A stretch of DNA of 64,000 nucleotides from Escherichia coli (GCF_016026235.1 NZ_CP065613.1), one strand, 5' to 3'. Positions 40,180 to 40,848 are shown, counted from the first letter of the stretch. Notes: generated by a model from the sequence alone, not told the origin. Numbers and translations are program-made.

Positions 40180-40848
40180 ATGGTGAAATTAATGAAAAAA
40201 AACACAGATGATGGGGCTAAAATTTACACACCACTTACCCTAAAGCTTTATGACTGGTGGGTTTTGGGAGTATCAAATCGGCTTGCATGGGGATGTCCTA
40301 CAAAGGAACACCTTCTTCCACACTTTCTGGAACATTTAGGTAACAACCATCTGGATATTGGTGTTGGAACTGGGTTTTACCTTACTCACGTACCTGAGAG
40401 TAGTCTGATATCTTTAATGGATTTGAACGAAGCTAGCCTGAACGCGGCATCTACAAGGGCTGGGGAATCAAAAATTAAACATAAAATTAGCCATGATGTT
40501 TTTGAACCTTATCCTGCGGCGTTACATGGTCAATTTGATTCCATTTCCATGTTTTACCTTCTTCACTGCCTGCCTGGAAATATATCTACAAAAAGCTGTG
40601 TAATACGCAATGCGGCGCAGGCCTTAACTGATGATGGAACTCTATACGGAGCCACAATTCTTGGCGATGGAGTTGTGCACAATAGCTTCGGTCAAAAACT
40701 GATGCGCATTTACAATCAGAAAGGCATCTTTTCAAACACAAAAGATTCCGAAGAAGGCTTAACACATATACTCTCAGAGCATTTCGAGAATGTTAAAACC
40801 AAGGTTCAAGGTACTGTAGTAATGTTTTCCGCTTCAGGGAAAAAATAG
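40180..40848 (+). CDS. putative class I SAM-dependent methyltransferase (prophage cargo)
   Basis: 222-aa ORF with a Rossmann motif-I-like LDIGVGTGFY; AT-rich surroundings; start (40180 or 40192) uncertain. Confidence 0.55.
   Translation: MVKLMKKNTDDGAKIYTPLTLKLYDWWVLGVSNRLAWGCPTKEHLLPHFLEHLGNNHLDIGVGTGFYLTHVPESSLISLMDLNEASLNAASTRAGESKIKHKISHDVFEPYPAALHGQFDSISMFYLLHCLPGNISTKSCVIRNAAQALTDDGTLYGATILGDGVVHNSFGQKLMRIYNQKGIFSNTKDSEEGLTHILSEHFENVKTKVQGTVVMFSASGKK

Follow-up and report, generated by a model that had tools for sequence, protein, structure and literature searches.

The open reading frame (ORF) at 40180-40848 of a 64,000-nucleotide stretch of Escherichia coli DNA (GCF_016026235.1, NZ_CP065613.1), referred to below in its full length as the window, is best explained as an intact copy of ybcY that is carried on an independent cassette and that encodes a cytoplasmic class I S-adenosylmethionine (SAM)-dependent methyltransferase, probably one acting on a small molecule. 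We put the probability of this account as a whole at about 0.75. That the gene is ybcY and that it is independent of the neighbouring ipaH are, taken together, very probable. A previous description made from the DNA without database searches (the sequence-only reading) had pointed to a methyltransferase-like cargo gene that could have been acquired with ipaH and that might act as an effector, a modification enzyme or an anti-restriction function; from that description the fold, the cargo label and the completeness of the gene can be retained, whereas the link to ipaH and the effector and anti-restriction roles cannot.

40180-40848, + strand: ybcY-type class I SAM-dependent methyltransferase gene (ORF listing, Pfam, PHROG, AlphaFold2 (AF2) model)

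Identity and distribution of ybcY

In the ORF listing of the window the gene starts with ATG and encodes 222 amino acids, and the motif LDIGVGTGFY that had drawn attention to it is found at residues 58-67, where it fits the class I motif I pattern [DE]xGxGxG. The AT-rich setting recorded in the sequence-only reading is confirmed by a GC content of 40.5% in the ORF (35.0% at third codon positions) against 50.8% across the window, and the flanks are also as described there, with a truncated tail-fibre-assembly fragment recognized by BLASTP on one side and ipaH recognized by the IpaH_Shig model on the other. Homologues of 218-222 amino acids align with the product from end to end, and its residues 5-222 cover positions 1-218 of the 218 positions of the PHROG 2132 profile (E = 7.9e-157). 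The ORF is therefore a complete gene and not a fragment of a larger disrupted one, an outcome for which the sequence-only reading had allowed. The true start is probably ATG 40192, four codons inside the annotated ORF, which would give a protein of 218 amino acids; this is preferred because Met5, which it encodes, is invariant among 30 homologues and is the start position for most of these, because a Shine-Dalgarno-like GGTGA (40182-40186) lies 5 nt before it, and because nothing resembling a ribosome-binding site is present in the sequence upstream of ATG 40180.

The protein is 99% identical to the main 222-amino-acid E. coli cluster (P0002, 6589 member sequences). At the matching locus of enteroinvasive E. 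coli (EIEC) O121 strain 201805972 the product is WP_000239881, annotated by PGAP as 'class I SAM-dependent methyltransferase', and the same gene is labelled YbcY in the annotation of phage PhiR26_1. On sequence grounds we assign the ORF as an intact orthologue of E. coli ybcY of the DLP12 prophage. In K-12 the order within DLP12 is tfa remnant, ybcY (frameshifted), tfa remnant, appY and ompT, and DLP12 shares 97% nucleotide identity with the window over 39877-40888. The K-12 gene, located between the tfaD and tfaX remnants, is the same gene as the window copy (97-99% nucleotide identity), and the two have in common the arrangement of tfa' remnant, ybcY and hairpin as well as an upstream TTGATT-17-TATAAC. 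They differ in that the K-12 allele is frameshifted whereas the window allele is intact; in addition, the full-length tfa that lies past the hairpin has been exchanged in the window for a module containing the small RNA CssrB and ipaH, together with a tfa of the DUF4376 type. The gene is already known: thousands of genomes, K-12 among them, have it annotated as ybcY or as a class I SAM-dependent methyltransferase. The annotation of PHROG 2132 is 'unknown function', and protein searches and a cluster look-up for named homologues returned only 'class I SAM-dependent methyltransferase', 'UbiE' and 'hypothetical'. The literature on ybcY contains only its use as a genomic landmark, a mutant without phenotype in one screen and a promoter/H-NS entry from SELEX (systematic evolution of ligands by exponential enrichment), while that on STM1638 of Salmonella and SF2021 of Shigella flexneri contains positional mentions only.

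Of 5426 complete E. coli genomes, 3831 (~70%) have ybcY at a nucleotide identity of at least 95%, with a median of one and a maximum of four copies, almost all of them chromosomal. It is also present, at a protein identity of at least 99%, in 15 lambdoid phage records. Temperate lambda-like coliphages, among them 2G7b, ev243, the PhiR26/29/30/49/68 series, Kati and Turner, share with the window the segment 39876-40888, which contains the tfa' remnant, the ORF and the hairpin, at 97-98% nucleotide identity. In 2G7b, PhiR26_1, DLP12 and the window alike, the gene occupies the interval between tfa and a tfa remnant, downstream of the tail-fibre genes of the lambdoid phage and transcribed from the other strand; in the window the ipaH module has taken the place of the full-length tfa side. 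Compared with orthologues of 65-90% identity, the ratio of non-synonymous to synonymous substitution rates (dN/dS) was 0.10-0.20, and ybcY is therefore under purifying selection.

Outside E. coli, Klebsiella and Enterobacter have close homologues (at least 56% identity), and less similar ones occur in Pseudomonas and fungi. Nine contexts examined in seven genera had no neighbour gene in common and the bacterial members were always single genes; no neighbour is conserved among Salmonella (STM1638), Enterobacter, Yersinia, Citrobacter, Pseudomonas and Janthinobacterium. For example, STM1638 lies beside rydC/cybB, the Enterobacter and Yersinia homologues stand alone, the Citrobacter homologue lies beside dinI, sodC and sopA in prophage-like cargo and the Janthinobacterium homologue follows a chemoreceptor gene. 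The Pseudomonas homologue, recovered by the family profile only, comes after genes for DUF892, Mn-catalase and DUF6388, and this setting may hint at a stress cluster. STM1638 and the Enterobacter, Yersinia and Citrobacter homologues have 56-68% identity to YbcY, retain all of its motifs and are likewise single genes with their own spacers. STM1638 and the stand-alone chromosomal homologues, annotated as 'putative SAM-dependent methyltransferase', are mostly located outside intact prophages, unlike ybcY. More distant homologues are repeatedly located near virulence or fitness cargo, as in Citrobacter braakii (sodC, dinI and sopA; locus L016, 5001-10657) and in Salmonella, where an sseJ-like gene with Sif and Lipase_GDSL domains is ~6 kb from the homologue (locus L004, 1-7663). 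This proximity probably reflects shared cargo hot-spots with no functional link.

The ybcY cassette and its junction with ipaH

ybcY travels as a single-gene cassette of ~1.05 kb, which in lambda-like phages lies directly past the tail-fibre genes. The cassette is made up of the tfa' remnant, 56 bp of spacer DNA, the gene itself and a terminator hairpin, is bracketed by two copies of this hairpin, and in the window is followed by the features of the ipaH module:

39790-39849, no strand given: terminator hairpin A with T-run (direct-repeat partner of hairpin B)
39854-40123, - strand: tfa' remnant, equivalent to K-12 tfaX (BLASTP; PGAP pseudogene in the identical EIEC locus)
40124-40179, + strand: tfa'-ybcY spacer, 56 bp, with two promoter-like sites (consensus scan)
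40856-40896, no strand given: terminator hairpin B (alignment with PhiR26_1 and 2G7b; blastn endpoint)
40857-41036, - strand: small RNA CssrB, known from Shigella (full-length match to Rfam RF02799, positions 1-180 of 180, 230 bits)
41029-41045, + strand: MxiE box GTATCGTTTTTTTACAG (exact; the only match in the window at two mismatches or fewer)
41164-42807, + strand: ipaH, encoding a type III secretion system (T3SS) E3 ubiquitin ligase, a separate cargo module (NCBIfam IpaH_Shig)

The two hairpins form a direct repeat (39790-39849 and 40839-40896; core CCAACCGCAGCACGT, family D1, 31 nt, 81% identity) with a start-to-start spacing of 1049 bp, and tfa' and ybcY are bracketed between them. Hairpin B begins 8 nt past the ybcY stop codon; its arms (40856-40866 and 40878-40888) pair at 10 of 11 positions around an 11-nt loop and are followed by TTTCCTTT, and in phages PhiR26_1 and 2G7b the stem has 11 perfect pairs. 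In the sister prophage of strain RMDEC332 one single hairpin links dinI straight to ipaH. Taken with the bracketing repeat, this join suggests that the ybcY cassette can be gained or lost through recombination between hairpin copies. In the tfa' remnant the last ~55 residues alone match lambda-type Tfa, with 89% identity to residues 137-191 of 194. The spacer between tfa' and ybcY contains the promoter-like sites TTAACC-16-CATAAT (40124-40151) and TTGATT-17-TATAAC (40152-40179), the second of which has been listed as the constitutive RpoD (sigma-70) promoter of K-12 ybcY, along with an H-NS site (PMC3946193).

Two further observations concern tfa. The Rfam family IS009 gave a weak match (129 bits) on the tfa' remnant (39897-40100, - strand) and strong matches (228 bits) in K-12 and PhiR26_1 (loci L019, 4765-4963, and L002, 4410-4608), the strong ones falling near the 3' end of the tfa gene that flanks ybcY on its other side. 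Since the matches lie on tfa' and inside the 3' part of the K-12 and PhiR26_1 tfa genes, 'IS009' seems to represent the 3' region of lambda-type tfa and not an independent RNA gene. An invertible tail-fibre segment of the Gin/Pin type was considered and rejected, as tfa' has the same orientation as tfa and the annotated flanks contain no gene for an invertase.

Along the late operon, which is on the - strand, the features follow one another as J, lom, stf, DUF4376-tfa, ipaH (+ strand) and hairpin B, and then ybcY (+ strand), tfa', hairpin A, dinI (+ strand) and the end with the attachment site. This order places ybcY, whose strand is opposite to that of the late genes, in the position and orientation of a cargo gene, and in phage 2G7b the integrase, ompT and alpha/beta hydrolase genes have the same orientation as ybcY. 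The sequence-only reading could assign the gene no phage structural role, and this is in keeping with its AT-rich composition, its orientation opposite the tail genes, its promoter-like sites and its own terminator hairpin.

The adjacent ipaH scored 563 bits on the NCBIfam IpaH_Shig domain model (cut-off 550) and is annotated ipaHe in identical EIEC loci. It forms part of a module that extends from 40889 to ~42900 and comprises the CssrB body, the MxiE box, ipaH and a terminator. In this prophage the joint with the module coincides precisely with the 3' edge of the hairpin that follows ybcY: blastn homology of the window to K-12 and PhiR26_1, both ipaH-free, ends at 40888, the last hairpin base. 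ybcY and ipaH are therefore two cargo modules meeting at a recombination joint, and their adjacency is the product of mosaic recombination and not of co-acquisition. The proposal that the gene was acquired with ipaH is further contradicted by the occurrence of the tfa'-ybcY-hairpin unit in K-12 DLP12 and in ipaH-free phages (97-98% identity), and the co-occurrence check suggested with it gave the same answer, as only eight of the 5426 E. coli genomes have the ybcY-ipaH junction, all eight of them annotated with Shigella-type ipaH genes. A shared origin is also not supported by the RMDEC332 sister prophage. Its J-lom-stf-DUF4376 tfa tail end and the 3' half of its ipaH are the same as in the window, and its dinI end is homologous (89% identity); at that locus the hairpin on the dinI side adjoins a different ipaH 5' region (ipaHd) and ybcY is absent. 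The full-length tfa beside ipaH in the window encodes a DUF4376 protein that is unrelated to the lambda-type Tfa behind tfa'. ipaH has a two-part composition, with 42% GC in its first 800 nt and 54% GC in the rest, and the sequence from 41860 onward is common to the other alleles ipaHd, ipaH7.8 and ipaH9.8 whereas the earlier part is not. This pattern fits recombination within the conserved C-terminal half of ipaH.

The whole window was searched for MxiE boxes at up to two mismatches (0.04 matches expected by chance) with a consensus that we take to be that of the MxiE/IpgC literature. The sole box found precedes ipaH and none is present upstream of ybcY, so that nothing points to T3SS co-regulation of ybcY. 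An ipaH virulence module should not be taken to include ybcY; that the two genes are neighbours illustrates the piecewise assembly of lambdoid cargo regions at terminator hairpins and tfa 3' ends.

The spacer between ybcY and ipaH is filled by CssrB, which is directed towards ybcY, has as its 3' terminator the hairpin B that is shared with coliphages, and overlaps the ipaH MxiE box with its 5' end. CssrB has been validated by Northern blotting as an RNA of ~180 nt encoded between SF2021 and SF2022 of S. flexneri 301, and the three genes have the orientation -> <- ->, as in the window (PMC3071730). The ybcY-cssrB-ipaH arrangement thus already matches one mapped in that strain (SF2021/cssrB/SF2022). 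CssrB was not found at the ipaH locus without ybcY, nor in the phage loci and the K-12 locus, and therefore appears to be specific to the junction of the ybcY and ipaH modules. Conceivably, CssrB in Shigella and EIEC has recruited the terminator of ybcY for its own 3' end, which would couple the cassette to the ipaH promoter region by convergent transcription.

Given that ybcY adjoins ipaH within an AT-rich cargo region, it could be virulence cargo acquired with ipaH, either as a secreted T3SS effector methyltransferase or as a gene functionally coupled to ipaH. The AF2 model, in which the first 14 residues are disordered (predicted local distance difference test, pLDDT, below 50), and the presence of homologues near sopA and sodC in Citrobacter and near sseJ in Salmonella would be compatible with such a role. 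We consider it very unlikely, as ybcY is present at this level of conservation (at least 95% nucleotide identity) in 71% of E. coli genomes, K-12 included, and in ipaH-free coliphages, the ipaH junction is a recombination breakpoint, a MxiE box is absent upstream of ybcY and the RMDEC332 ipaH prophage does without the gene. Homologues in Klebsiella, Enterobacter, Pseudomonas and fungi argue in the same direction, as does the recovery by Pfam, at E ≤ 0.001, of generic methyltransferase domains only; the check for a secretion signal proposed in the sequence-only reading gave no signal-peptide-like N-terminus. The T3SS effector methyltransferases NleE and OspZ of enteropathogenic E. coli and Shigella share with ybcY only the idea of a methyltransferase in a cargo region; they are not known to be Rossmann-fold enzymes, and on that basis, together with the purely generic class I domains recovered by Pfam and without direct comparison to an NleE sequence, they are set apart from YbcY. 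A second alternative, that ybcY is a decaying, non-functional prophage remnant retained by hitch-hiking, would suit its degraded surroundings (a split J, the tfa' fragment, and J and terminase pseudogenes around IS1 in the EIEC locus), the truncated or frameshifted alleles of K-12, S88 (194 amino acids) and Sd197 (143 amino acids) and the binding of the region by H-NS in K-12 (PMC3946193). This too is highly improbable: the window copy is intact and 99% identical to the dominant 222-amino-acid allele, dN/dS is 0.10-0.20, 58 residues including all SAM-binding motifs are invariant and active temperate phages carry the gene.

Fold, relatives and possible substrate

YbcY itself is a class I methyltransferase by several measures. 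Pfam returned generic class I families only at E ≤ 0.001 (Methyltransf_12 at 6.3e-9, followed by Methyltransf_23, _25, _11 and _31), and the AF2 model (pLDDT 90.5, predicted template-modelling score 0.87) is a seven-stranded Rossmann methyltransferase with an N-terminal helical lid and a helical insert between strands 5 and 6; the predicted sheet has the C-terminal antiparallel hairpin of class I enzymes. The Rossmann-type SAM-dependent methyltransferase of the sequence-only reading is thus upheld by the Pfam families (Methyltransf_12, _23, _25 and _11) and by the model. Across 30 homologues, down to 56% identity, 58 residues are invariant. These include D59, G61, G63 and G65 of motif I (DIGVGTG, residues 59-65), D81 (in LMDLN) and D106 (in HDVF) at the ends of predicted strands 76-81 and 99-104, the lid motif Y24-D25-W26-W27, LLH129-C130-LPG after strand 4, and N168. 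From the family pattern we infer that D81 binds ribose and that D106 is the motif III acidic residue. YbcY has a maximum 19-residue hydropathy of 0.95, and because neither a hydrophobic segment nor a signal peptide is evident it is predicted to be soluble and cytoplasmic.

The solved-structure neighbours listed by Foldseek were overwhelmingly small-molecule and lipid methyltransferases, with a few tRNA or mRNA enzymes. They included phosphatidylethanolamine (PE) N-methyltransferase, juvenile hormone acid methyltransferase (JHAMT), phosphoethanolamine methyltransferase, SgvM, C-methyltransferase domains of polyketide synthases (PKSs), Coq5 and UbiG, and natural-product methyltransferases were also among them. 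PE N-methyltransferase was the top match, yet it was no closer than many others. A sequence-profile search of the PDB gave JHAMT as the best match (E = 2.3e-5) and named one other, UbiG (1.2e-3). Both are small-molecule O-methyltransferases that have the class I fold and motifs I-IV in common with YbcY, but identity is ~17-21% and confined to the SAM-binding core, the substrate-binding cap being unaligned.

Closer relatives were found in AFDB50, in which YbcY is surrounded by a defined family of ~220-amino-acid proteins (template-modelling (TM) score 0.86-0.91) from Enterobacteriaceae, Pseudomonas, Vibrio, Legionella, Streptomyces, Mycolicibacterium and many fungi, and a profile search of 1.84 billion representatives yielded 421 clusters at E ≤ 1e-30. 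The named AFDB50 members are all fungal: 'Methyltransferase verB' (36% identity), a VrtF-named protein (41%) and a lichen 'putative O-methyltransferase' (46%). VerB (A0A1V6NVX3) aligns with YbcY over 228 columns at 36% identity (TM score 0.91, E = 6.8e-26). The Dov proteins are reported to be nearly identical to their counterparts from the ver cluster of P. polonicum X6, DovB has been shown to O-methylate an alpha-pyrone hydroxyl, and AurB, CtvB and AstB are described as catalysing the same pyrone O-methylation (PMC12312803). VerB/DovB, AurB, CtvB and AstB, from the verrucosidin, aurovertin, citreoviridin and asteltoxin pathways respectively, belong to the same ~220-amino-acid single-domain family as YbcY. 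However, the genes for the fungal pyrone O-methyltransferases belong to PKS clusters and their products modify intermediates of the pathway, whereas ybcY is a stand-alone prophage gene, and at 36% identity substrate specificity is not transferable from VerB. A fusion to a U32-type hydroxylase was also considered for two long homologues, P0218 (510 amino acids) and P0181 (336 amino acids), and is unsupported since their N-terminal extensions have no Pfam match; the other long homologue hits look like fungal gene-model artefacts.

That YbcY is a small-molecule methyltransferase is, we believe, likely; O-methylation specifically is put forward more tentatively, at somewhat short of an even chance. 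The top Foldseek match raises the alternative that YbcY methylates a lipid, by N-methylation of PE as PmtA does, or else tRNA, rRNA or a protein. This is improbable: the PmtA model scored 15.6 bits against a cut-off of 390, the hits to lipid and macromolecule enzymes had 12-17% identity and did not surpass those to dozens of natural-product methyltransferases, every named relative with more than 35% identity is a small-molecule O-methyltransferase, and no amphipathic or hydrophobic membrane segment is evident in YbcY. Moreover, neither methylated PE nor phosphatidylcholine is known from E. coli. Phages often carry orphan DNA methylases, and a weak PADLOC match to the mad2 methylase of MADS (E = 0.003) could be taken to mean that YbcY is a DNA methyltransferase protecting phage or host DNA, in an anti-restriction role or as an orphan methylase. 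A regular-expression search of this single-domain protein of 218-222 amino acids found no [DNS]PP[YFW] or PCQ motif, no DNA methylase was present among the structural neighbours listed, and PADLOC placed YbcY in no defence system, the match at E = 0.003 being a generic one. The DNA-modification and anti-restriction ideas of the sequence-only reading are accordingly abandoned as most unlikely.

For YbcY as a small-molecule methyltransferase, the following mechanism is proposed. ybcY would be expressed from the prophage, probably at a low level limited by H-NS, and its product would use SAM to methylate a small molecule that is probably hydrophobic. The likeliest acceptor would be the oxygen of an enol or phenol, by analogy with the closest named relatives of YbcY, the alpha-pyrone O-methyltransferases VerB/DovB, AurB and CtvB of fungi. 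YbcY would need no partner gene, which suggests that its substrate is a common cellular or environmental compound and that the benefit is a fitness trait of the lysogen rather than a function in the phage cycle. More speculatively, and on present evidence unlikely to be correct in this specific form, members of the YbcY family could be lysogenic-conversion O-methyltransferases that act on a diffusible pyrone-, quinolone- or phenol-like compound, such as a competitor's toxin or signal or a gut metabolite. Mycobacterial Htm, for example, inactivates 4-hydroxyquinolones. If true, this would be the first function for a gene present in ~70% of E. coli and for a family of more than 400 clusters (at 50% identity) spanning bacteria and fungi.

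Several findings weigh against a small-molecule methyltransferase expressed in this way. No PKS or other biosynthetic gene was found beside ybcY in the window or in nine other contexts, and substrates are known for no family member closer than 36% identity. The NCBIfam models for PmtA (15.6 bits against a cut-off of 390), RquA (16.9 against 175) and CpaM (17.4 against 180) were all matched below threshold only. The promoter scan overall returned sites no more numerous than in shuffled sequence, so that the two sites in the spacer are candidates only, and the K-12 ybcY mutant had no phenotype in one screen, the K-12 allele being frameshifted. Nevertheless, the kinship of YbcY with the pyrone O-methyltransferases provides a concrete starting hypothesis for the substrate of a common and selectively maintained prophage enzyme.

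The prophage and other features of the window

The first 22 codons after btsS (39197-39262, + strand) read MALYTIGEVALLCDINPVTLRA, which we take to be the N-terminus of MlrA/YehV, and prophage DNA follows immediately. A dinI-like gene (39490-39738) lies inside the prophage DNA next to the mlrA codons. mlrA/yehV is the gene for a curli regulator and a known attachment site of lambdoid and Stx phages. As the 22 MlrA-like codons run directly into prophage DNA, the ipaH/ybcY prophage is placed in mlrA/yehV. The prophage is defective; the tail-tip gene J is split into two ORFs (45704-46954 and 47011-49176, - strand), and in the otherwise identical EIEC locus IS1 is located between the J and terminase pseudogenes.

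Elsewhere in the window, two OrzO-P antitoxin RNAs (28128-28201 and 28736-28811, + strand; Rfam RF02083, 89 and 100 bits respectively) form a tandem zor-orz type I toxin-antitoxin locus, and a thiamine pyrophosphate (TPP) riboswitch (3073-3169, - strand; Rfam RF00059, 71.6 bits) lies upstream of minus-strand ORFs at 570-3038.

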